Positions 24,765-35,587 of a stretch of DNA of 64,000 bases are shown piece after piece. The notes beneath the pieces are model-generated. The model was not told the DNA's origin and searched no databases. It saw nothing but the letters and a program-made list of their open reading frames with translations. The position numbers were made by a program, and so were the translations under genes. Within the stretch, counting starts at the first letter, position 1, and each line of letters starts with the position of its first letter. This DNA is from Candidatus Babeliales bacterium. Lineage in GTDB: Bacteria > Babelota > Babeliae > Babelales > RVW-14. The stretch lies in assembly GCA_041671765.1 (NCBI GenBank), contig JBAZAX010000006.1, positions 2,231 to 66,230 of the forward strand, given 5' to 3'.

Positions 24765-25805
24765 TTAAAATATAAAATTGATACGCATAGGATCTACAAC
24801 ATTAATGGGTTTTCTACAAAATGGACACGTGTTTCCATTAAGACAATCACTGTTATGCCATTCGACCATGCATTTGATACATAGCTTATGATTACAACCT
24901 GGCCATGGTACAAGAAATTTTTTATTCAGGCATATTGGACAATCTTCAAAGCATTTCGGATTATTTGCTATATGTTCCATTAAATACAAGGTAAATAAGT
25001 AATCAGGATACTTATTTTTAAGAATATAAATTGCGCTTTGTCCATAGCTATTCTGGATTGTTGGGTCTGCACCATAACTTAACAATAATTGGATAAGATT
25101 TGATCTAATTGGATAAAAGACAGAAATTAAAGGTGTGCATTTATTTTTGTCTTGCATATTAGGATTTGCGCCATTTTCAAGTAGCAGGCGTGTAATGTGA
25201 TAATTACCAGAATAAACTGCTGAATATAGAGCGGTGTCACCGTTTTCATCGGCTGCATTAACATCAGCGCCTTTTATTATTAACGCCTCCGTTGCTCCTG
25301 AATTTTGAATTGATACGGCAGTCTTCAATAGATATTCTGAAGATGTCTCTGAAGAGCGTTTGATAATACAAGCATTAGGATTTGCTCCTGCTTCAATAAT
25401 AGCTGTGAAATAAAGACAATCTTTTTTGGTTTGTGTTTGAATTTCGTTTAAAAGAAATATATCAATAGGTCGATTATCTTTTGAATATTTTCGCTTAAAG
25501 CTACGAGATGACGTAGTCGATAAATAACCTAACCCATCTGAAAATCCGACGGTAACTTCAGCTCTATGTTGGAGTACATGTTTTGATTCACTTCCCAAAT
25601 CTGCTTCGTCATCCGATGGATCAAAATCATCATCGCTGTAATAAAAGTCTGTCCAACGTTGCTGTATTTCACGTTGTATTTGTCTTTGGGTAACTTGGGT
25701 GTCTGTAGATTCAGAATGCTCATCGGATTCTTGCATTGCAAAAAGATCAAAATTTAACAAAGCAAACAAAATTAAAATTTTAAACGTGTAAAACTTCTGA
25801 TTCAT
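24765..25805 (-). CDS. Ankyrin-repeat protein with C-terminal RING-HC (C3HC4) finger: eukaryote-like E3 ubiquitin ligase candidate
   Basis: Ankyrin repeats (GADVNAADENGDTALYSAVYSGNYHITRLLLENGANPNMQDKNKCTPL). RING CPICLNKKFLVPWPGCNHKLCIKCMVEWHNSDCLNGNTCPFCRKPI. Leader MNQKFYTFKILILFALLNFDLFA followed by Met24. Confidence 0.8.
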   Translation of the reverse strand: MNQKFYTFKILILFALLNFDLFAMQESDEHSESTDTQVTQRQIQREIQQRWTDFYYSDDDFDPSDDEADLGSESKHVLQHRAEVTVGFSDGLGYLSTTSSRSFKRKYSKDNRPIDIFLLNEIQTQTKKDCLYFTAIIEAGANPNACIIKRSSETSSEYLLKTAVSIQNSGATEALIIKGADVNAADENGDTALYSAVYSGNYHITRLLLENGANPNMQDKNKCTPLISVFYPIRSNLIQLLLSYGADPTIQNSYGQSAIYILKNKYPDYLFTLYLMEHIANNPKCFEDCPICLNKKFLVPWPGCNHKLCIKCMVEWHNSDCLNGNTCPFCRKPINVVDPMRINFIF

Positions 25806-26719: not shown

Positions 26720-26731
26720 GCTTATTGATAA

Positions 26732-26771
26732 ATTAGTAGCCCTAGCATGTAAAAGTGCCAGGGTTACTAAT
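26732..26771. terminator. Imperfect ~16-bp hairpin between convergent genes
   Basis: attagtagccctagca / tgccagggttactaat, with one wobble and one mismatch. It lies between 25994..26719 (+) and 26788..27333 (-). Confidence 0.35.
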
Positions 26772-26787
26772 TTAAATTACGTAAAGA

Positions 26788-27333
26788 TTACTTATCGCAT
26801 ATGTTAAACAAATCCATAAATAATAAATGTTCAACGGTAACATTTGGACCAAAAATTGTTACACCACCTGGCATTTTAAATCCTTCTACGGTTTCGTGCA
26901 TATCAGCATATCCAATTTCATAATATCCATTTTTAATCAAAACTGATGAAATTTTTTCATGTAAAGCAAATTGTTTTTTAGTATATGCTTGATTATCGGC
27001 ATCGCGAAGAACCGGCGACATTCTATCTTCATCCATATTTTTAACTGAGTACTCATGTTGAATATAAAATAATGAAGCGACTTTTGAAATATGAAGTTTT
27101 GTTTCATATGAAATTTCAAATTCGCCTTTTTTATAATCGTCAAAATGAATGTACCAAATTTTAGATGGGTTATCTGGATAATCTTGTATTTCTTCTAATT
27201 TAAATTCTTGTTTATCGATATATTCCCTTATTTTATCAAACAGTTGTATTTGCTTACTACAACATATCTTGAAAGCACTATAATCATTTTTTTTATAAAA
27301 TTTGTCTATTGCATTGAAAACAATATCTATCAT
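26788..27333 (-). CDS. Hypothetical 181-aa cytoplasmic protein; positional candidate for the immunity protein of the upstream rRNase toxin
   Basis: Starts 16 nt downstream of the toxin stop on the same strand. No signal peptide. No similarity that I can recognise to colicin E3 immunity (about 85 aa) or other immunity families. Function is inferred from position only. Confidence 0.45.
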   Translation of the reverse strand: MIDIVFNAIDKFYKKNDYSAFKICCSKQIQLFDKIREYIDKQEFKLEEIQDYPDNPSKIWYIHFDDYKKGEFEISYETKLHISKVASLFYIQHEYSVKNMDEDRMSPVLRDADNQAYTKKQFALHEKISSVLIKNGYYEIGYADMHETVEGFKMPGGVTIFGPNVTVEHLLFMDLFNICDK

Positions 27334-27349
27334 TATTATTAAACCTTTC

Positions 27350-30300
27350 TTATTTCATCTTTAAATCATGCCGGCCTGATAAATCAGCTTTCTTTGTTTG
27401 TTTAAAATCAAAATCAACTTCGCCCAAATGTTTTCCATTTCTGTTTAGAGCTTCAAATCTTCCATGTTGAGAGTCTACAGAATAAAACATACGAGCATTC
27501 TCGTCTTTATAAACATCTCGTTTATTAATTCTTGATAAGTCTCTGTCAAATTTTAAACCACTTGCTTGAGCAACTCTTTCAGCCTCAGTTTTTATCGCCG
27601 CAACTCTTTCACCCGGTGGCATTCTAGAAATTCTCTGTTCAAACTCAATTATTCTAGCAGATCTTCCTGATGCTTGAACAGGTTCAGTTGGAATTTGTCT
27701 GCCGCCATCACCTCTTCTAAAACTTCCCAAGTCTTCAGCAGCCGCTGCGCCTTCGCGCTCAAAATCACCTACAATTCTTGCCACGGCTCCATCAAAAGAG
27801 CCTTCTGTTATAACCAGCTCTGGATTTCTTTGAAGCGCTTCTGCAACCTTTCTCGCAAAATCTTGCCCTTTTTGCTGTGCAATCTTTCTAAATTTACCTA
27901 AATTTTCAGATATTGTTGAAGTTGGTGTAAAAATATTTTTGACTGCTGCTGGCAGGTTTGCAAAATTTGGAATACTGTGTGCAATTTCCTGCTCTCTAAT
28001 TACAAGTTCGCCACATTCTTTTATGGCTGTGGCTGCCAATTGAAGGTTATGTACTCTTGGCAATGTTGTTGCAAATGAAACTTCTAATGCAGGAGTTAAA
28101 TATCTACAAGAAAAAACATGACATAATCCATAAAAAATTAATTCTGTTCTTTCCGGACCTGTCATTGCTTCAAGCTTGTCAACCATCGGCTTAATAATTG
28201 GCTTTAATTCTCTGTTAAACGTTTCTATTCCTAACTCAGGGTTTTCTTCAATCATGCCACCAATTAAAGCCATTTTTGTGCTTAAAATTGTAAGCGCTTT
28301 GGTTCCTTCTTTCAATTTGGCCAAAGTTTCGGCAGGATGTGTAGCAATGTCTGTAAAGAATTGAAGATTTTCAAGCCCGAAACGCTGTAATCCTGCGGCT
28401 GCTCGTTGAGCATGATTTCCAAATATTTTTGCCGTATTTTGCCCGTATTTCACCATGTATCGTGCAGCAAACCTTAATGCATATGCACTTCCATCATCCC
28501 CATCGGTTTGCGCATAGAGATCTGCAAATTTATTTAACACACCCACAAATTCACACGTGCTTTTCAAGGTTGTATCACTACTGGCAATTCGAGCTAGAGC
28601 CTCATTGTAGCTGCTTGTTTTTTCTGTGAATTTTTTAAACTGACCTGGAGTTAAACCTCCACTTTGTGTTGTTGCCGCAGGTTCTTCCATGCCGACGACA
28701 GAGTGCGGAATTACAAAAGGTTCGTCTATCACCGTAGGACTAGAAGAAAAATCTCCTGTCCTTTTTATTTTTAATGGACGAGCTGTATCATCAAAAATAA
28801 TTGGAAAAGCTGATGTCCCAGCAGAACATGCTGCAGATTCCGGATCTTGTGGAACATCTCGCATTTCAACATCATGAGGCAATGTAGTCCGTAAATTTAA
28901 TAGTGGTCGGTCTAAATAAGGAGTGTATCTTGTTTCCTCTGGTCCTTTACCAAAAAAATGTGCACCGTCCATTGGAGGAGGGGACGCAAAAAGATATCTT
29001 AAAAGATGGTCTGTGCCGGCCGTTGCAACGGCCCTTGCTGCTCCAAAGCTAAAATCTCTGGCCGCTACTTTGGATCTTTCAGCAACGGCAGTTGTTGTCC
29101 TTGAAAAAAATTCCCGAACTCTTTCTCCTAATGTTGGTTGTTGTGGTACTGATTTTTCAACTGAGGGTTGAGGTGCTGCACTACTTATATCAGGTCGTAG
29201 ATCATGAGTTTCACCTGAGCGTCTTCCTAGGGATTCTTGCCGTAATCTCTCAAATCCTTCGGGATCATTAACAACAAAATCAGCAATATCCTCAGGTATA
29301 CCAGCACTAATTAAAGATTGCTTTTCTCTGGCCTTACTCTCTTGTTCCAATTGTGCTTGTTGTTGTCGTGGTCTTTGACAAATTCTTTCAAATTCTTCAG
29401 GTTCATATGCCGCCCAATGTGCAATATCTTCAGGAATTCCAGCACTAATTAATCGTTGCATATCTTCGGTTTTATCTTGAGCGCCATCTCCACTACCAGC
29501 AACATTTCCAAGTAACTCTTCAGCTCCCGGACTAGAAGTATAATATCTTATTTTCGTATCAGTTGATAACCTTATTAAATCTAAATCATTCACTTGATCA
29601 GGAAATTTAATTACCAATTTAGGGTCACCATTCTTTGACGAATCTACTGTAGCATCTACAACATAATCACGTTTCTCAGAAGATCCACCAACCCATGTCC
29701 TTGGATTAAGAACTTTAACAACTTTTTTAGTCCCATGAAGAACAGCTTTGGTTCTATAAAATCGTTTTTTTCCGTCTTTAGAAGTTCCTACACATTCAAA
29801 ATCACTTGATAAAATAAGCTCCTTCGACATTCCACGTTTATTTAAAAGATCCGAGAAACCCATATCTTTTGATATAAAATCTTTTATATTTTTTAAATCT
29901 TTTTCAACCTGTTTGGACAAATTTATTGCCAAATCTCTTTGAATGTAAAAAAGATATGTTTCACCATTTGTGCATAATTTGGGAAATTGATTCTGTTTTA
30001 AGGATACAATATACCCAGCAATTTCCTGCTCCCCTATTTTATGAAGTATTGCGGCAGGAACTGCTGCCACGCTATGCAATCGCCCAATAAATTCCTCAGC
30101 TAGTGCTTCCAATTCTGGCACAGTGATCCCTGGTTTTAATTCAAGACGAAGCCTCAACAAATTCTTTAAATCGGTTACTAATAATTCCGTATAATATTCT
30201 ACCGATTGTCCTCCTCCTAGACACGCCTGAGTTAATAAATGTGCATTACGAAAGGCCGAAGCACTGGCTATATTGGCTACAATAACTCCCTTTTGTTCTA

Positions 30301-30877
30301 TTTCACTCAATTTGTCAAATGCTGCGCGTTGTTTTGCCGCAATAATTTTTGCAACAGGAAATGGGTCTATAAGAGACCGCTCAAAAGTCTGGTTACCAGG
30401 ACTCTGTCTAATTTGTATCCAATAATTTTCACCACAGCTCTCAGATTCCACATCTCTGCCGCCTCCACCGCTAGATCCATTACCCCCACCGCCAGATGCA
30501 TCATGACTTCCAGAAGATCCCTCATGAAAACCATCTGAGGCAGCTCCAATTTTACTTGAATGGCGTAACACAAACAACATATATTCATCCTCTGGCTGTA
30601 TTAGATGAAACACCGCTGTCCCATCTTCGAGATTACCAGTTTGAACACAGTAATTTCCTTGTGCATAATTGTGTTTCGCACGTATTTTGTCCCATCTTAC
30701 TATAGATACGTCGTATTCGGTTTTTGTTATTCCGGGATATTTTGAAGCTTCGGTCCAAACCCTATCATACAAAGCCCTTCTATATTCAGGGATTTTATCC
30801 ATTCCATTTGAAAGACCAACCTGATTTACAACAAAAAGATAAATCAAAATATTTTTGAATTTCATGATAACCTCCAA
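27350..30877 (-). CDS. 1175-aa leader-bearing polymorphic-toxin-like protein with C-terminal colicin E3-type cytotoxic rRNase domain
   Basis: C-terminus ...NKRDVYKDENARMFYSVDSQHGRFEALNRNGKHLGEVDFDFKQTKKADLSGRHDLKMK aligns with colicin E3 ...GRKIYEWDSQHGELEGYRASDGQHLGSFDPKTGNQLKGPDPKRNIKKYL as I recall it. The catalytic D, H and E of DSQHGxxE are conserved; DSQHG is at nt 27461-27475. Leader KFKNILIYLFVVNQVGLSNG. Gly-rich tract GSSGSHDASGGGGNGSSGGGG. Confidence 0.8.
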   Translation of the reverse strand: MEVIMKFKNILIYLFVVNQVGLSNGMDKIPEYRRALYDRVWTEASKYPGITKTEYDVSIVRWDKIRAKHNYAQGNYCVQTGNLEDGTAVFHLIQPEDEYMLFVLRHSSKIGAASDGFHEGSSGSHDASGGGGNGSSGGGGRDVESESCGENYWIQIRQSPGNQTFERSLIDPFPVAKIIAAKQRAAFDKLSEIEQKGVIVANIASASAFRNAHLLTQACLGGGQSVEYYTELLVTDLKNLLRLRLELKPGITVPELEALAEEFIGRLHSVAAVPAAILHKIGEQEIAGYIVSLKQNQFPKLCTNGETYLFYIQRDLAINLSKQVEKDLKNIKDFISKDMGFSDLLNKRGMSKELILSSDFECVGTSKDGKKRFYRTKAVLHGTKKVVKVLNPRTWVGGSSEKRDYVVDATVDSSKNGDPKLVIKFPDQVNDLDLIRLSTDTKIRYYTSSPGAEELLGNVAGSGDGAQDKTEDMQRLISAGIPEDIAHWAAYEPEEFERICQRPRQQQAQLEQESKAREKQSLISAGIPEDIADFVVNDPEGFERLRQESLGRRSGETHDLRPDISSAAPQPSVEKSVPQQPTLGERVREFFSRTTTAVAERSKVAARDFSFGAARAVATAGTDHLLRYLFASPPPMDGAHFFGKGPEETRYTPYLDRPLLNLRTTLPHDVEMRDVPQDPESAACSAGTSAFPIIFDDTARPLKIKRTGDFSSSPTVIDEPFVIPHSVVGMEEPAATTQSGGLTPGQFKKFTEKTSSYNEALARIASSDTTLKSTCEFVGVLNKFADLYAQTDGDDGSAYALRFAARYMVKYGQNTAKIFGNHAQRAAAGLQRFGLENLQFFTDIATHPAETLAKLKEGTKALTILSTKMALIGGMIEENPELGIETFNRELKPIIKPMVDKLEAMTGPERTELIFYGLCHVFSCRYLTPALEVSFATTLPRVHNLQLAATAIKECGELVIREQEIAHSIPNFANLPAAVKNIFTPTSTISENLGKFRKIAQQKGQDFARKVAEALQRNPELVITEGSFDGAVARIVGDFEREGAAAAEDLGSFRRGDGGRQIPTEPVQASGRSARIIEFEQRISRMPPGERVAAIKTEAERVAQASGLKFDRDLSRINKRDVYKDENARMFYSVDSQHGRFEALNRNGKHLGEVDFDFKQTKKADLSGRHDLKMK

Positions 30878-30892
30878 ATTTTTTATTTTATA

Positions 30893-31879
30893 TCATTTAT
30901 CACATGCCCCAGCGGCTGCGCTAGATGCTACAGCTCCCGCTACAGGTGCTAATGGTGGGCAAAAAGATCCTACAAAGGCGAAAGCTCCTAAATAAGCTAA
31001 CGATGGCCATAGTTGTGCAAAAAATTTCTTACAGTAATGGGTATCAAATTTATCCCAGTATTCTTTGTCTGTAATCCATTCTCCATTAACCTTTGCCCCA
31101 TTAGCTTTTAATTTTTTGGCAAAAATTTCTAAGTCATTTGGATTAGTAAACGCAATATTGCTAAATAAACTTTTTGTTGCCCAAGAGACTTGGTCTAAAT
31201 TTGTGCAGTTATCAAAATTTAGGTTTAAAAAATAGCTGTTTTTAAAAATAGTTCCAAAAAAGTTGGCACTTGTTACTGAACTTTTTTCATTTCTGCCTAA
31301 AAGACAGCACCTTGAAAAACTTGTTTGATCAAATATGAGACCATTACCAATCTGAACCGTTTCGTATATTTTTACTAAATCGAGTTTTGCTGCCCTAAAA
31401 TTTATATTTTCTAGGGTACATCCAGAAAAATTTACAGTATCCCACTCGCTGCTATCCATATTTATATTGCAAAGCCTAGATACCATAAAATCCGTTTCTA
31501 AGAGCTTTGCATTAGGCATTAGTGAATTACTTATTTCCGAAGAATCAAAAATAACTTTTGCAAAAATACAAGATGTTAAATTGGAATTGTTTAAAATTTT
31601 TGAATTGTTGAATACCAAATCGCAGTATGTAACGGTTGATAAATTACATGAATCAAATGTAACATTTGTAAGCATTGAATTATGAAAAAATGCACCGGTT
31701 AAATTTACGTTTGCAAAAGTAACATCTGACAAATCCATATTTTCGATTTTTGCTTTTGACAAATCTGCATTTTCAAACTTTTTCCCTCCTGCAAGTAATT
31801 CTTTATATACCTGTTGGTCATATGCAAATAAGTTTGCGATATTTAAAATTAAAATAAGTGAAAAAATATATTTCTTCAT
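30893..31879 (-). CDS. Pentapeptide-repeat protein with signal peptide and C-terminal hydrophobic/Cys-rich tail
   Basis: A(D/N)LxX repeats: ADLSKAKIENMDLSDVTFANVNLTGAFFHNSMLTNVTFDSCNLS. Leader MKKYIFSLILILNIANLFA. Tail LGAFAFVGSFCPPLAPVAGAVASSAAAGACDK. Confidence 0.85.
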   Translation of the reverse strand: MKKYIFSLILILNIANLFAYDQQVYKELLAGGKKFENADLSKAKIENMDLSDVTFANVNLTGAFFHNSMLTNVTFDSCNLSTVTYCDLVFNNSKILNNSNLTSCIFAKVIFDSSEISNSLMPNAKLLETDFMVSRLCNINMDSSEWDTVNFSGCTLENINFRAAKLDLVKIYETVQIGNGLIFDQTSFSRCCLLGRNEKSSVTSANFFGTIFKNSYFLNLNFDNCTNLDQVSWATKSLFSNIAFTNPNDLEIFAKKLKANGAKVNGEWITDKEYWDKFDTHYCKKFFAQLWPSLAYLGAFAFVGSFCPPLAPVAGAVASSAAAGACDK

Positions 31880-31889
31880 GATAAATCTC

Positions 31890-33182
31890 CTAATTAGCTT
31901 TTTGTCTTTTTATCTCTGCAGCTATAAAATCCCTAATTTTTGCCTCTTGTTGCTGTTGTCTACCTGTTATACGTTCTTCAGCTCTTGATATGATGCTTGA
32001 TATTGTTCCTTGTGCGGCACTAGATGCTAACGTAATAAAAAAATCTTTCCAATCTTTTTCTGTTGTAGGCCAAAGTACTTTAAATTCGTCTGCAGGAACT
32101 TCATTTACGCAAGCACCCTTGTGTCTTAAATCATCCAAATCTCTTGGATTGCTGCTCACAATGTTATCAAATAGAGTTCCAACTGCTTTTCTAATTCTTC
32201 CAATATTCGTACAATTACCAAGCTTTACATGTTGTATAAGCACATCTTCTAATGATGCTCCATAAAAATCAGAATTTAGTAGAATGCTGTTGATATTTGA
32301 AATACCAAAATCTCTTTGCCAGTCCAAAAATTTAGAATAAGCAAAATTTAAAACTGTAACAGATGGGGAAATCTCACACTCAAATTTTAATAAGTCACCA
32401 TAGAACAAACCAGGATCTTTTCTTATTGCTGGAGAATATTGGGCAAGCTTACTCAGTACACCCATCTTGTTAAAAGAAATGCGAGCGGCCAAATCATCTC
32501 TCTCTGTGATACCATCGGTTCTTTCACCAGATTTTGGAGTTCTGGAAATGGTCTTCCCTCTAATACACCCAGTTTTTATTGTGGCATACCTGAAATTCAA
32601 ATTGGTACCTATGATCGTTGCATTACTTATATCAAGGCCTACGATGTAAGCCCTACTGAAATCTATGTTCATTAGCAAAGATTCGTTAAAATATAGTTCT
32701 TCAGCTTGTATGTGCACCATATTTACATGATCAATTACGGAGGTTGAGAATCTGACATTTTTTAACTTTGCATTAGCAAAAGAAACATTCTGAATTGCAA
32801 CATCTTTTAATATTAGCGAACTTATTGTTGCGTTTTCGAATTTTGTACCATCTGTGATAGCTATGTTATGAGCTGTTATATTTGTTATTGTTGAATTACT
32901 TAAATCCGTGTTCTTTAAAGTTGCGTTACATAATTGAACATTCGAAAGAATTGCATTATTTAACTTTGCATTTGTTAAATTTGCACCATTCAATTTTGTC
33001 CCAATTAATTTTGCGCCTACCAACGATGCTCCTGTTAAATCTGCCCCATTCAAATCAAAGTCGGTTAAATCGGCTCCATCCAACTGAGCATTAACTAAAT
33101 TTTTATCAGAAGATTGAGCTAGTAGTTTTGCACGTTGGAGATCTAATTCTTGTTGTTTTTTGATACCACAAATCTTTGCCAT
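31890..33182 (-). CDS. Pentapeptide-repeat protein (no leader)
   Basis: AQLDGADLTDFDLNGADLTGASLVGAKLIGTKLNGANLTNAKLNNAILSNVQLCNATLKNTDLSNSTI. The C-terminal non-repeat module is paralogous to that of 30893..31879. Confidence 0.85.
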   Translation of the reverse strand: MAKICGIKKQQELDLQRAKLLAQSSDKNLVNAQLDGADLTDFDLNGADLTGASLVGAKLIGTKLNGANLTNAKLNNAILSNVQLCNATLKNTDLSNSTITNITAHNIAITDGTKFENATISSLILKDVAIQNVSFANAKLKNVRFSTSVIDHVNMVHIQAEELYFNESLLMNIDFSRAYIVGLDISNATIIGTNLNFRYATIKTGCIRGKTISRTPKSGERTDGITERDDLAARISFNKMGVLSKLAQYSPAIRKDPGLFYGDLLKFECEISPSVTVLNFAYSKFLDWQRDFGISNINSILLNSDFYGASLEDVLIQHVKLGNCTNIGRIRKAVGTLFDNIVSSNPRDLDDLRHKGACVNEVPADEFKVLWPTTEKDWKDFFITLASSAAQGTISSIISRAEERITGRQQQQEAKIRDFIAAEIKRQKAN

Positions 33183-33255
33183 CTGGTCAATTATTTTTTG
33201 CTGCGCTTCTTTATATTTTTGGCTTTGCTGTATTGGAAATAACCCTACATGGCAC

Positions 33256-35370
33256 TCAGATTCTTTTAATGCGTAAAATAAAAGGACAACCTAAAATTCT
33301 TTGCACCATAGCTGAAGTACCAGCTTGATGACAACGCTGACATGCATAACTTTTATCAAAAAATGGTGCGAAGTGTGCCTCTAAAATTTCTTGAACACTT
33401 TTTAACTGGTTAGGACAAATAGTCGTCTTGGGTTGCACTACCCCACCTTTATCTGAAGTATATTCGCAGCCTAATATATCTTTTCTTTTTAAACACTGAG
33501 TAATTATATTAATACTCAGATTAAGAGGTTGTTTATCTTGGGCATGTAACTGACCAAGTAACAAATTTAAAAATTCATCTGCAACTTGAAAAGCCACTTC
33601 ATGATTTTTACTTTGTTCGATCAATATTTTTGCTTGTTCTACAAGATTTTGATCAGTCACTGGCTCACTCGAGGTTTTTAATTTTTTTATAAGATTAATA
33701 AGACTGAAGACGAAAAAATTATCTTCATAATTATTTTCACTTGAAACCAATTGTGTCTTAAAGTTTTTAAGATTAGAAAGACACTGAACGACTGAATTCA
33801 AATATGGAACTATACTAACTTGCATAAGCCCAACATTTTGACGTTTTTCTAATGCCTCTGCTTGAATTCTTAACTCTTCTTGACGTTTCTTTATCGCCTC
33901 TTCTCGTAGTCTAGCCTCTTCCTGATTTCTCAGGGCCTCTTCTTTTTGGCTGCTATGAGTAATCCAGTCATAAAATTTTCTAAAAAAACTTTTATATTCT
34001 TGTTCCTGTAGTTGCTGAATAGAAGGCAAAGTACCTGCCATACTTGCTGCAGCCTCAGGGTCCTGTAAATCGACGACCTCTTTTCTTTTTTGGCTTGAGG
34101 GTTCCGACAGGTCTGCATCATCATCATTTGGATTAAAACCTCTGGCTTCAGGTCTAGCTCCAGATTGTTGTGCTGCCGGTTGGGCAGGTGCTTGCGCCGT
34201 TGGGCGCTTTTTTTGATAAAACAGAATGTAGGGAGTAAAATTTTGAAAACTTAACGGAAAACTACCTGCTTTAACAATACCTTGTATAACTTGCTCATTT
34301 ATTTCGCTGACGGATGAATCATTGTATACATACCATTTTCCATTTTCAAAATCTTTAACGATAGAGATATAGTGGTTGCAACCGTGACAAACAAAACCCG
34401 CTAATTCATACAAAAGATTTACACCTTCTCGGTTTTTGAGTTCATCTGCTGCATAAGGTTTTAAGTCGAGTTCCATAGTGAATGAGACAGGATTGATTAT
34501 CTTGCGACCATCTGCAGTAAATCTTTTTAACGACATGATTAAAATATCGTGATCTTCTAAAATTTCTGAAGATTTAAAAGATGTGTTAACTTTGTTACAG
34601 CTACCACATTGATAGCCGTTTGCAAGTGATGGATGAAAGAAGTCTGTCAATAACTCCTGTAATTCAGTAAGTGTGTTATGTCTCTCAATTTTATCAAGCG
34701 GCAATGCAATTGTTTCATACGTTTCATGTTTTTGGGACTCGAACGGACATACACTTATACCATCAGTCGCTAAGCATTTAACTTTCTGATTAAGCTTTAA
34801 CTCTAAAGAAATTTTGTCCGGTTCATGAATTTGGCTTAATAGTAAAGTTAAAAATTCATCAGCATCCTGAATAGATTTTCCTTTATTGGCAGGAATATCC
34901 TCAATTAACTTTTTTGCCCGCTCAGTAAAGTCTTTATCTTTTACCTCTGATGCACTGGTTGTTCTTAAATTTTCAAATAATTTTATTAAATTTAAAACAA
35001 GAATTTTTTTAGCACGATTTTCTGGCGTATCGTCAATACGTTCTTGTTGATAAAATGCTTTGTTTCCCAATAATGTTGATCTGAAAACTTTAAGATTTGA
35101 AAGACACTGAACAACGGCATTTATATAACAAATGTTACGGCCGCCATTTTTTAAGCCCACATTCCTATGACTTGCAACAGTTCTTGTTGAACTTACTGAA
35201 TCAAATGTCCTTTTTTGGCCCTCTGGAGTTCGAGAAGCTTGAGTACTTTCAGTTTCGGGTTGATCATCCTCTGCATCTCGCATTGCGTAAAGATTAACTT
35301 GTAAAAGTGCCTGAAACAGCACAAACAGCATCGAAAGAACATGAAAATTCTTCTTCACGATAACCCCCAT
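33256..35370 (-). CDS. Tandem USP protein: one intact USP/UCH (C19-like) deubiquitinase domain plus a degenerate, truncated second copy
   Basis: Domain 1 has Cys box GLKNGGRNICYINAVVQCLSNL (Cys81, nt 35128-35130) and His box CHGCNHYISIVKDFENGKWYVYNDSSV. Domain 2 has NVGLMQVSIVPYLNSVVQCLSNL, where Pro replaces the catalytic Cys, and ends at ILRIKRI before any His box. Leader VLSMLFVLFQALLQVNLYA followed by Met30. Confidence 0.8.
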   Translation of the reverse strand: MGVIVKKNFHVLSMLFVLFQALLQVNLYAMRDAEDDQPETESTQASRTPEGQKRTFDSVSSTRTVASHRNVGLKNGGRNICYINAVVQCLSNLKVFRSTLLGNKAFYQQERIDDTPENRAKKILVLNLIKLFENLRTTSASEVKDKDFTERAKKLIEDIPANKGKSIQDADEFLTLLLSQIHEPDKISLELKLNQKVKCLATDGISVCPFESQKHETYETIALPLDKIERHNTLTELQELLTDFFHPSLANGYQCGSCNKVNTSFKSSEILEDHDILIMSLKRFTADGRKIINPVSFTMELDLKPYAADELKNREGVNLLYELAGFVCHGCNHYISIVKDFENGKWYVYNDSSVSEINEQVIQGIVKAGSFPLSFQNFTPYILFYQKKRPTAQAPAQPAAQQSGARPEARGFNPNDDDADLSEPSSQKRKEVVDLQDPEAAASMAGTLPSIQQLQEQEYKSFFRKFYDWITHSSQKEEALRNQEEARLREEAIKKRQEELRIQAEALEKRQNVGLMQVSIVPYLNSVVQCLSNLKNFKTQLVSSENNYEDNFFVFSLINLIKKLKTSSEPVTDQNLVEQAKILIEQSKNHEVAFQVADEFLNLLLGQLHAQDKQPLNLSINIITQCLKRKDILGCEYTSDKGGVVQPKTTICPNQLKSVQEILEAHFAPFFDKSYACQRCHQAGTSAMVQRILGCPFILRIKRI

Positions 35371-35398
35371 TATTAAATAATTGTTTTGTAAAAAAAAT

Positions 35399-35444
35399 AA
35401 ATTACAACTATTTGTAATTTAATATATTAAAAGCGCTTAGTCAA
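35399..35444 (-). promoter_or_regulatory. Candidate sigma70 promoter with overlapping 9-bp inverted repeat (operator-like) for the USP/pentapeptide/toxin operon
   Basis: Minus strand: TTGACT (35439-35444), a 17-nt spacer, then TAAATT (35416-35421). The inverted repeat aaattacaa-ctat-ttgtaattt (35399-35420) overlaps the -10. It lies about 30-75 nt upstream of ATG 35370. Confidence 0.35.
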
Positions 35445-35450
35445 AGGCCT

Positions 35451-35459
35451 GGGGGGGGG
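35451..35459. repeat. Homopolymeric G9 (C9 on the minus strand) tract immediately upstream of the candidate -35
   Basis: ggcctGGGGGGGGGtataaag read directly from the sequence. This is the longest G/C run I noticed in the window. Confidence 0.9.
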
Positions 35460-35587
35460 TATAAAGTTTTCATGCTGAAACAAATTTTAATGCGTCGACG
35501 GGAAAGATCGGCATGGCTGAAATAATTGTCTCAAAAAACTGTAATTCGCGTAAATCAATGCCTCAAAAACGGTAAAGCTCGGACGGA

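Follow-up and report, generated by a model that had tools for sequence, protein, structure and literature searches.

A five-gene array on the minus strand of a Candidatus Babeliales bacterium, located in a 64,000-nucleotide stretch (assembly GCA_041671765.1, contig JBAZAX010000006.1, positions 2,231-66,230; the window below means this whole stretch), ends in a large toxin gene with a colicin-E3-type ribosomal RNA nuclease (rRNase) tip followed by a small putative immunity gene, and sequence comparison gives good support to this 3' pair as a Sec-dependent polymorphic toxin-immunity module of the Tox-ColE3 kind. The genes in front of the pair encode a USP-type deubiquitinase and two pentapeptide-repeat proteins (PRP1 and PRP2). 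The interpretation that we regard as reasonably probable for the whole array is a chromosomal Babeliales operon in which one transcript carries both a toxin-immunity pair directed against rival bacteria and genes for secreted proteins of host interaction. Babeliales belong to the Dependentiae (TM6), a widespread, almost wholly uncultured group of protist parasites whose effector biology is essentially unknown. The locus indicates that classical exchangeable toxin-immunity cassettes are present in this phylum, which implies real inter-bacterial competition despite a presumed obligate intracellular life.

The five minus-strand open reading frames (ORFs) of the preliminary description, with intergenic gaps of 73, 10, 15 and 16 nt, agreed exactly with the ORF list:

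33256-35370, minus: USP ORF
31890-33182, minus: PRP1 ORF, 430 amino acids (aa)
30893-31879, minus: PRP2 ORF, 328 aa
27350-30877, minus: toxin ORF, 1175 aa as first called
26788-27333, minus: immunity ORF, 181 aa

The domain assignments made there were all recovered by Pfam: UCH in two stretches of the USP ORF (1.8e-48), Pentapeptide in PRP1 (2.6e-25) and PRP2 (3.9e-11), and PF09000 in the toxin. NCBIfam added only pentapeptide matches for the operon proteins, all of them below threshold. According to hydropathy, the USP protein, PRP2 and the toxin have Lys-rich, hydrophobic N-termini resembling signal peptides, and the immunity protein is without one. Near-identical DNA (99.9-100%) was found in at least 6 metagenome assemblies; the strain is present in groundwater and soil samples (ERZ27249449, the Rifle ANAN16 set, SRR1658473 and JGI 3300025154).

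The rRNase tip of the toxin

The most probable start codon of the toxin is the ATG at 30865, with a product of 1171 aa, because the TTG of the first call sits within a GGAGG ribosome-binding site, five bases 5' of this ATG, and because the gene call in the metagenome contig L001 is the 1171-aa form. The start MKFKNILIYLF is kept in relatives. Toxin residue numbers refer to the 1171-aa form unless the 1175-aa ORF is named. The C-terminal tip has the following features:

27353-27658, minus: colicin-E3/pyocin-S6-type rRNase domain, residues 1070-1171
27452-27475, minus: DSQHGRFE
27419-27436, minus: GKHLGE

Residues 1119-1165 of the 1175-aa ORF matched the PF09000 Cytotoxic model at E 6e-06, with 26.9 bits where the cut-off is 22, and the E3-type tips of relatives likewise passed the threshold. 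The tip sequence DSQHGRFE...GKHLG aligned with DSQHGELE...GQHLG of colicin E3 (1e44_B), the active-site motifs D-x-x-H-G-x-x-E and G-x-H being retained; in an alignment of 36 tip sequences D, H, G, H and H were invariant and E was nearly so. The second His of the E3 motif has been stressed by Zhang et al. (2012; PMC3482391). The AlphaFold model of the tip had a predicted local distance difference test score (pLDDT) of 86, and its five best PDB matches found with Foldseek were colicin E3 chains (E 5e-03 to 1e-02, probability 1.00, root-mean-square deviation 1.6-3.5 A over 48-69 columns), followed by CdiA-CT of Enterobacter cloacae. The predicted fold of the tip is that of the E3 RNase. The hallmark of colicin E3 is a cut in 16S rRNA between A1493 and G1494, and by homology the tip would cut small-subunit rRNA at the decoding centre, halting translation.

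An exhaustive HMMER search with the toxin among 1.84 billion representative proteins produced 325 clusters at E <= 0.001; it was used in place of a word-index search with the full 1175-aa toxin, which returned nothing, probably being swamped by low-complexity words. Of the 150 clusters listed, nearly all matched residues 1067-1171 only; the matching stretch lay at the very C-terminus of their proteins, whose lengths ranged from 68 to 2662 aa. The long tip carriers that were sampled included TPS/haemagglutinin proteins of the CdiA type, RHS proteins with PT-HINT, LXG proteins and proteins with a core domain of extracellular contractile injection systems (eCIS), and the carriers in loci L007 and L010 contain Hint domains.

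Constant and exchangeable regions of the carrier

The remainder of the toxin is divided at a conserved junction into a constant and an exchangeable part, the latter consisting of a helical pre-toxin part and the rRNase tip:

28688-30865, minus: constant region, residues 1-726
30803-30865, minus: signal-peptide-like start MKFKNILIYLFVVNQVGLSNG
30458-30517, minus: Gly-rich tract
29372-29452 and 29234-29314, minus: two 27-aa LISAGIPEDIA repeats
28892-28960, minus: conserved motif HFFGKGPEETRYTPYLDRPLLNL
27353-28687, minus: exchangeable region, residues 727-1171, from the junction EEPAATTQSG

No Pfam domain was found in the constant region, and only three relatives sharing it were found in the exhaustive HMMER search. 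Scans of metagenome contigs with the constant region and with PRP2 gave no matches. Two related loci were compared with the window, L012, a 226-kb contig of a metagenome-assembled genome from Microflora Danica, and L024, a short contig; the N-terminal ~95 aa of the toxin are not conserved in either.

The motif LISAGIPEDIA......PE.FER..Q (residues 472-544, 29234-29452), present in two copies and likewise duplicated in the L024 toxin, had no Pfam match. The repeat probably disturbs assembly, since it is precisely here that the Rifle scaffold L002 is interrupted and differs. Two candidate identities, a UBA/CUE-like nature of the repeat and a ubiquitin-like nature of the N-terminal ~95 aa, which would make the latter a substrate of the USP, were rejected, Pfam giving nothing for them even at E 5 and the N-terminal part lacking conservation in L012 and L024.

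Conserved gene order and exchange of tips in related loci

A lack of conservation of the neighbourhood in relatives had been named in the preliminary description as a sign of chance juxtaposition. This sign is not seen: the window shares the order PRP1-PRP2-toxin with L012 and L024, these three being the loci with the constant region, and the USP part was present in both loci long enough to show it (the window and L012), its absence from view in L024 being due to the shortness of that contig. Gaps of 10-27 nt between the genes are kept across these genomes. Two downstream genes are common to the window and L012, and the upstream flank is not shared.

The L012 operon begins with a fusion of USP, a dead USP copy (ψUSP) and PRP1, followed by PRP2. 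Its toxin (1332/1336 aa) agrees with that of the window in the signal peptide and, at 33% identity, in a central region that includes HFFG.GPEETRYTPYLDRPLLNL, but carries a tip unrelated to E3 (no PF09000 match) with a 112-aa gene one base 3'. Next comes a 408-aa orphan, 48% identical to residues 721-1135 of the window toxin, and after it an insertion sequence (IS) whose transposase is of the rve family. Beyond the IS, an E3 tip survives in its last 41 aa (66% identical) and is followed by an intact homologue of the immunity gene. Starting at the junction MEGPTATTQTG, the main toxin and the orphan of L012 are near-identical over ~80 aa and differ thereafter, which is the pattern to be expected if the tip was replaced by recombination. 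An orphan cassette with a shared junction, its orphan broken by the IS and its immunity gene intact, is present in L012 and absent from the window. Orthologous carriers here bear unrelated tips and the E3 tip is borne by unrelated carriers, as in polymorphic toxins. L012, in which a different tip and putative immunity gene precede the displaced E3 tip and an intact E3-type immunity gene, indicates that the toxin tip and the immunity gene are swapped as a unit by recombination at the conserved junction.

The L024 contig contains the C-terminus of PRP1, PRP2 and a toxin 75% identical over residues 598-813; its frameshifts in PRP1 (~320-400) and the toxin (~3633) may be sequencing errors, and the integrity of its genes should not be over-read.

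The tip of the L012 toxin (locus 11007-15357) contains EFID...WDVK and appears nuclease-like by eye only. A PD-(D/E)xK assignment suggested by this appearance was dropped, and the tip is termed only 'different', neither it nor the 112-aa gene having a match in Pfam, NCBIfam or PDB sequences. The two may constitute a further undescribed toxin-immunity pair.

The immunity gene family

The 181-aa protein had no matches in Pfam, NCBIfam or PADLOC, and seven homologues were found at 50-62% identity. Its structural model (pLDDT 76) gave nothing below E 0.1 against the PDB in Foldseek, and because of this a known immunity fold (colicin E3 immunity, CdiI, SUKH) is not claimed. The identity of the protein is indicated by its position: members of the family stand 3' of an E3-type tip in 5 Babeliales-type loci (in P0013 the member is recognised by size only) and in at least 7 Bacillus plasmids, which agrees with the earlier proposal that the last gene is protective and cognate to the toxin. 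The homologue in L007 directly follows an E3-tip Hint toxin, and the array to which both belong also contains orphan tips and further Hint toxins whose tips are of another kind (Ntox17); in L010 and L011 it follows a 421-aa E3-tip protein and is succeeded by a second paralogue; and on the P0013 contig a gene of 181-aa size, assigned by this size only, follows a 1049-aa E3-tip toxin with a signal peptide. Arrays of immunity genes were also seen: L025 (1-1620) has a cut immunity gene, a 31-aa remnant of a toxin tip and two more immunity genes, and two further short contigs have runs of two or three same-size genes, alike by size only.

Full-length homologues with 33-35% identity were found in 19 records of Bacillus cereus-group plasmids. 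In the Bacillus records common to both result lists the homologue lies 20-24 nt from a gene for a 'colicin E3/pyocin S6 family cytotoxin' (7/7). The identities of the toxin tip and of the immunity protein drop in step across the loci (63/61%, 66/59% and 52/50%). By sequence, the 181-aa gene is a member of an unannotated, cross-phylum family of predicted immunity proteins for the E3 nuclease subfamily. An example of the plasmid pairs is found on Bacillus wiedmannii plasmid p536 (L026, NZ_CP036072.1, 245186-246345). The 181-aa homologues of Bacillus are all labelled 'hypothetical protein' despite the annotated cytotoxin just 5', which represents an annotation gap.

The array of small toxins in L007 (860-7127; GCA_001468855.1, LDIV01000003.1; GC content 23.5%) represents a second, unrelated carrier family for the E3/immunity module. 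Its toxins have in common a Hint N-terminus, a Gly/Val-rich hydrophobic stretch and the junction YQFFKSQDKSQNSFYIERA, after which the tips differ (Ntox17, E3-type and two unknown orphans), each being followed by a different small gene.

The deubiquitinase and the pentapeptide-repeat proteins

The upstream part of the operon has the following features:

35101-35142, minus: Cys box of USP domain 1
34351-34383, minus: His box of USP domain 1
from about 33816, minus: second USP-like domain, catalytic Cys lost, shortened
33183-33290, minus: deletion scar, located by tblastn of residues 560-830 of the L012 fusion against the window and by three-frame translation

The most likely start of the USP gene is the GTG at 35358, giving a product of 700 aa; this codon has GGGGGTTATC just 5', and the L012 counterpart has GGAGGTTATC-ATG and a protein start MKKIFHV. 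USP domain 1 matched human USP47, USP2 and USP36 at ~2e-14 with the Cys and His boxes aligned, NICYINAVVQCL and NHYISIV...YNDSSV corresponding to the catalytic motifs of USP47. The catalytic residues of the C19/UCH class are complete in domain 1 only. Domain 2 reads VPYLNSVVQCL, with Pro at the position of the catalytic Cys, and has lost its C-terminal half; domain 2 of L012 has Tyr at the His position. The tandem USP of the preliminary description therefore holds as regards the two UCH stretches, but the triad exists in domain 1 only and domain 2 is dead and truncated.

In L012 USP, ψUSP and PRP1 form a single ORF of 1196 aa, of which residues 773-1195 are matched by PRP1 of the window with 66% identity. 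Relative to this fusion the window misses ~91 codons of domain 2, with a change of frame, and a relic of the end of domain 2 (LLFYALKESECH) is preserved in the PRP1 frame 5' of the PRP1 ATG, before which a ribosome-binding site was not found. By this comparison the 73-nt gap is the scar of an out-of-frame deletion in an ancestral USP-ψUSP-PRP gene, and the five ORFs stem from four genes.

The two pentapeptide-repeat proteins are paralogues. According to hydropathy and frame checks, PRP1 of the window is without a signal peptide, and it no longer contains the hydrophobic segment that L012 and L024 retain. PRP2 has a signal-peptide-like N-terminus, a hydrophobic C-terminal tail (residues 293-318) and a GGAG ribosome-binding site 5', and is 68-70% identical to its L012 counterpart, depending on the alignment, and 71% to that of L024. 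A scan of genome contigs with PRP2 found L012 as the sole true relative. A C-to-A change (coding strand) at position 31205 in L001, the sole difference between the window and L001 over 8.8 kb, creates a nonsense PRP2 allele of 224 aa, which is the form annotated by NCBI as 'pentapeptide repeat-containing protein'; a search with the C-terminal region of PRP2 found this truncated allele only. The hint at DNA mimicry given earlier for these proteins is unsupported because their best scores of 25-33 bits are far below the Qnr/MfpA cut-offs of 240-480, and an identity of this type was rejected. They are generic pentapeptide-repeat proteins with a signal peptide and membrane segments.

Control region, terminator and neighbouring genes

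The elements flanking the operon were located as follows:

35399-35480, minus: conserved upstream control region, from alignment with L012
35439-35444, minus: -35 element TTGACT, with a 17-nt spacer to the -10 element
35416-35421, minus: -10 element TAAATT
35399-35420: palindrome AAATTACAA-ATAG-TTGTAATTT with perfect 9-bp arms
26730-26773, minus: stem-loop, probable terminator, between convergent genes

Both the sigma70-like promoter and the palindrome of the preliminary description exist, but the consensus match is no better than chance: 29 promoter-like consensus sites were seen in the region against 31.9 +/- 5.1 expected. The ~110 nt 5' of the USP start align almost base-for-base with L012, although the proteins are only 52-70% identical, and it is this stretch kept in a distant relative, rather than the consensus score, that better supports a real promoter. 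The right arm of the palindrome has 2 changes in L012, its sequence being conserved and its symmetry not. A run of nine C (coding strand) at 35451-35459, six bases 5' of the -35 hexamer, where L012 has CTCCCACAT, may be a slipped-strand switch or a mere homopolymer.

The hairpin reported behind the operon proved real: its folding energy is -23 kcal/mol (z = -6.0), and none of 200 shuffled sequences folded as well. A strict terminator scan did not call it because a T-run is absent.

The GC content is ~35% across the window, without a compositional island, and tRNA and Rfam scans of the window gave no matches. Two genes downstream of the operon, at 24765-25805 on the minus strand, lies a gene for a 346-aa protein with ankyrin repeats and a C-terminal RING finger, the layout of a eukaryote-like E3 ubiquitin ligase. 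It is missing at the matching position in L008/L012, where its two flanking genes are adjacent. A large uncharacterised ORF of 1268 aa near the operon (38048-41854, minus) has weak matches to DUF5848 and to YezG-like immunity proteins, neither being a clear domain.

Proposed mode of action and alternative readings

In the interpretation preferred here the genes are probably transcribed together from the one conserved sigma70-like promoter to the strong hairpin. The 1171-aa toxin, with a constant part of ~725 aa, an exchangeable part of ~445 aa and the rRNase in its last ~100 aa, would be exported via its signal peptide, and the immunity protein, having none, would stay in the cytoplasm, bind the nuclease and shield the producer and its kin. 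The target would be rival bacteria, for instance other Dependentiae in the same protist host. The ancestral upstream genes were two. One would have encoded a secreted fusion protein, anchored in the membrane, in which a pentapeptide-repeat region was joined to an active and a dead USP; this gene has been split by a deletion in the lineage of the window. The other would have encoded a secreted, tail-anchored pentapeptide-repeat paralogue. Their products may be host-interaction proteins that remove ubiquitin and are co-regulated with the toxin. Dependentiae depend heavily on Sec-exported proteins (PMC6561590), and both Sec/type II secretion system (T2SS)-dependent polymorphic toxins and Tox-ColE3 are recognised classes (PMC3482391).

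Inter-bacterial conflict is favoured because the tip was swapped between orthologous operons, because the displaced immunity gene is intact, because immunity genes occur in arrays, and because the tip is found on CdiA, Rhs, LXG and eCIS carriers and on Bacillus plasmids. The earlier suggestion of a polymorphic cassette captured inside a host-manipulation operon is accepted in its first half, as a cassette better fits the turnover of tips, the displaced tip and the arrays. The word 'captured' is misleading, since only the last ~445 aa are exchangeable and the constant ~725 aa are lineage-specific and stand beside PRP genes in all three loci carrying them.

Several points weigh against the preferred interpretation. 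What the sequences show is anatomy, homology, predicted fold, synteny, tip exchange and the immunity arrays, and we infer co-transcription, export, RNase activity and its RNA target, protection through binding, and which cells are attacked. A domain for crossing the outer membrane or for entering target cells was not recognisable in the toxin, and there are no dedicated secretion genes in the window. The orphan cassette is absent from the window, evidence of this type coming from relatives only, and the constant region is known from three loci only, two of them from one long-read survey. For a presumed obligate intracellular parasite the contact with rivals may be limited. An operon shared with a eukaryote-type deubiquitinase fits a host target equally well, and cleavage of 18S rRNA by colicin E3 has been reported for isolated ribosomes of eukaryotes (PMC4639596).

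These last points lead to another possible, though rather unlikely, reading, in which the rRNase is exported into the protist host, its mitochondria or plastids to cut small-subunit rRNA there, with the deubiquitinase and the PRPs as co-effectors and the immunity protein guarding the producer before export. The phylum consists of intracellular protist parasites with very large sets of Sec-exported proteins (PMC6561590), a USP with an intact triad is part of what is conserved in the operon, the ankyrin-RING protein is encoded nearby, and any nuclease that attacks bacterial ribosomes would require an immunity protein, irrespective of where it finally acts. However, tip and immunity gene are replaced from one orthologous operon to another, the immunity gene that was displaced remained intact after the IS had broken its toxin, and immunity genes stand in arrays of two or three with a mere toxin remnant; turnover and arrays are expected for protection against the toxins of other cells and not for self-protection alone, and they weigh against a host target. 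Of the other carriers of the tip, CdiA, Rhs and LXG typically act between bacteria, and the host effectors of amoeba symbionts typically have no immunity genes (Zhang et al., 2012; PMC3482391). The possibility that the array is a chance juxtaposition, or a toxin-antitoxin or Menshen-like anti-phage module instead of an exported toxin, is far more remote. It derives from the lack of enrichment of promoter-like sites and from the match of the tip to PADLOC models of NsnC (best 6.9e-14), the polymorphic RNase effector of the Menshen anti-phage system (PMC12065111). This match covers NsnC model positions 197-292 only, which is the shared C-terminal nuclease, and leaves out the inactive-PIN N-terminal domain of NsnC, and none of the five operon proteins matched the NsnA or NsnB models; a Menshen (NsnABC) or toxin-antitoxin identity was rejected. 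A toxin of 1171 aa with a conserved signal-peptide-like start is also unlike cytoplasmic toxin-antitoxin or Menshen effectors, and the order, the short gaps and the control region are conserved at 50-70% protein identity where the upstream flank is not shared.

A closer relation between the two halves of the operon is conceivable, but doubtful: the USP-PRP fusion and PRP2 might be dedicated partners of the constant region, for example membrane-anchored beta-helical PRPs that hold, present or release the toxin, and a papain-fold USP acting as a processing peptidase. PRP1 and PRP2 accompany the constant region in 3/3 loci with very short gaps, in L012 with the USP as well, and the E3 tip/immunity module on other carriers has no such USP/PRP neighbours; the ancestral PRP proteins had a signal peptide and hydrophobic anchor segments, and papain-like peptidases are known from processing positions of polymorphic toxins (Zhang et al., 2012; PMC3482391). 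On the other hand, a USP-type or pentapeptide accessory lacks precedent, 'pentapeptide' being absent from the 2012 survey (PMC3482391), and Pfam found in the toxin no ubiquitin-like or other recognisable domain on which the USP might act. In the window the fusion is split, PRP1 has lost its signal peptide and anchor, and a nonsense allele of PRP2 is circulating, while the toxin pair is intact; this suggests that the PRPs are dispensable for the toxin and speaks mildly against a strict requirement. Three related genomes are too few to separate function from inheritance. A wider version of the same thought, about as doubtful, is that the conserved linkage is functional and that the deubiquitinase/PRP membrane proteins and the exchangeable rRNase make up one weapon of this clade of protist parasites for the host-cell stage. 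In one form the rRNase may enter the host cytosol or an organelle and the deubiquitinase may strip ubiquitin from the bacterium or its vacuole; in another the PRPs may anchor the toxin at the interface between bacterium and host, killing co-infecting rivals in the same host cell. A joint weapon of this kind would add a class of accessory genes not previously described for polymorphic toxins, and it would be the first case of a characterised toxin system from Dependentiae.

The locus defines a lineage-specific Sec-dependent toxin carrier, and the immunity family that pairs with colicin-E3/pyocin-S6 nucleases in Dependentiae and Bacillus could be named and added to annotation pipelines. If the link of the toxin with the deubiquitinase and the pentapeptide-repeat proteins is functional, host manipulation and bacterial warfare would be joined in one transcription unit.

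Comparison with known systems

A literature search found no paper joining Dependentiae with polymorphic toxins. The closest described relatives are the Sec/T2SS-dependent polymorphic toxins with Tox-ColE3 (PMC3482391), with which the Babeliales toxin shares a signal peptide, a constant region, an exchangeable toxin part and an immunity gene directly 3', as well as a displaced tip/immunity cassette, seen in L012, and the presence of the tip on many unrelated carriers. In contrast to the systems of that survey, known pre-toxin or repeat domains are missing from the constant region, Pfam and NCBIfam do not include the immunity family, and the toxin is the third gene of a conserved operon led by a USP/pentapeptide fusion and a pentapeptide paralogue.

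Colicin E3/ImmE3, with pyocin S6 and cloacin DF13, has in common with the present pair the nuclease fold and motifs and a small immunity gene directly 3', and the Gly-rich N-terminal tract is reminiscent of the colicin translocation domain, although this is a low-complexity resemblance only. The combination typical of a colicin operon (E3-type immunity, a lysis gene and a toxin without signal peptide) was not found: a lysis gene is absent, the ORF list containing no ORF between the immunity gene and the hairpin, a signal peptide is present, and there is no relation in the receptor and translocation domains. With its 181 aa, the immunity protein differs from ImmE3 in its predicted fold, which matches neither E3 immunity nor any PDB chain, and the modelled nuclease has an extra N-terminal helical hairpin. 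The CdiA-CT/CdiI pair of Enterobacter cloacae (a 16S rRNase, PDB 4ntq) is similar in its E3-like tip, non-ImmE3 immunity protein, cassette exchange and orphan modules, but its structural match to the tip is weaker than that of colicin E3 (E 0.4 vs 0.005), and the hallmarks of contact-dependent inhibition (a two-partner secretion domain, haemagglutinin repeats and CdiB) were not found by Pfam in the toxin or its neighbours. In the Bacillus cereus-group plasmid pairs the tip is 45-50% identical, the downstream 181-aa protein 33-35% identical over its full length, and the order and the gaps of ~20 nt are the same; their carriers, unlike the one described here, are short, or are S-layer-homology/SH3 proteins of Gram-positives, and have no USP or pentapeptide neighbours.

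The USP/UBCH effectors of Amoebophilus, Protochlamydia, Simkania and Waddlia are likewise secreted eukaryote-type USPs of intracellular bacteria dwelling in protists, presumed to remove host ubiquitin. They were reported without immunity genes and are unlinked to polymorphic toxins, whereas the Babeliales USP heads a toxin operon and was ancestrally fused to a dead USP copy and to a pentapeptide beta-helix with a membrane anchor. Overall, the toxin tip, the cassette logic and the USP effectors of symbionts are already known, and what is new is the lineage-specific carrier, its conserved deubiquitinase and pentapeptide partners, the phylum in which they occur, and the unannotated immunity family.

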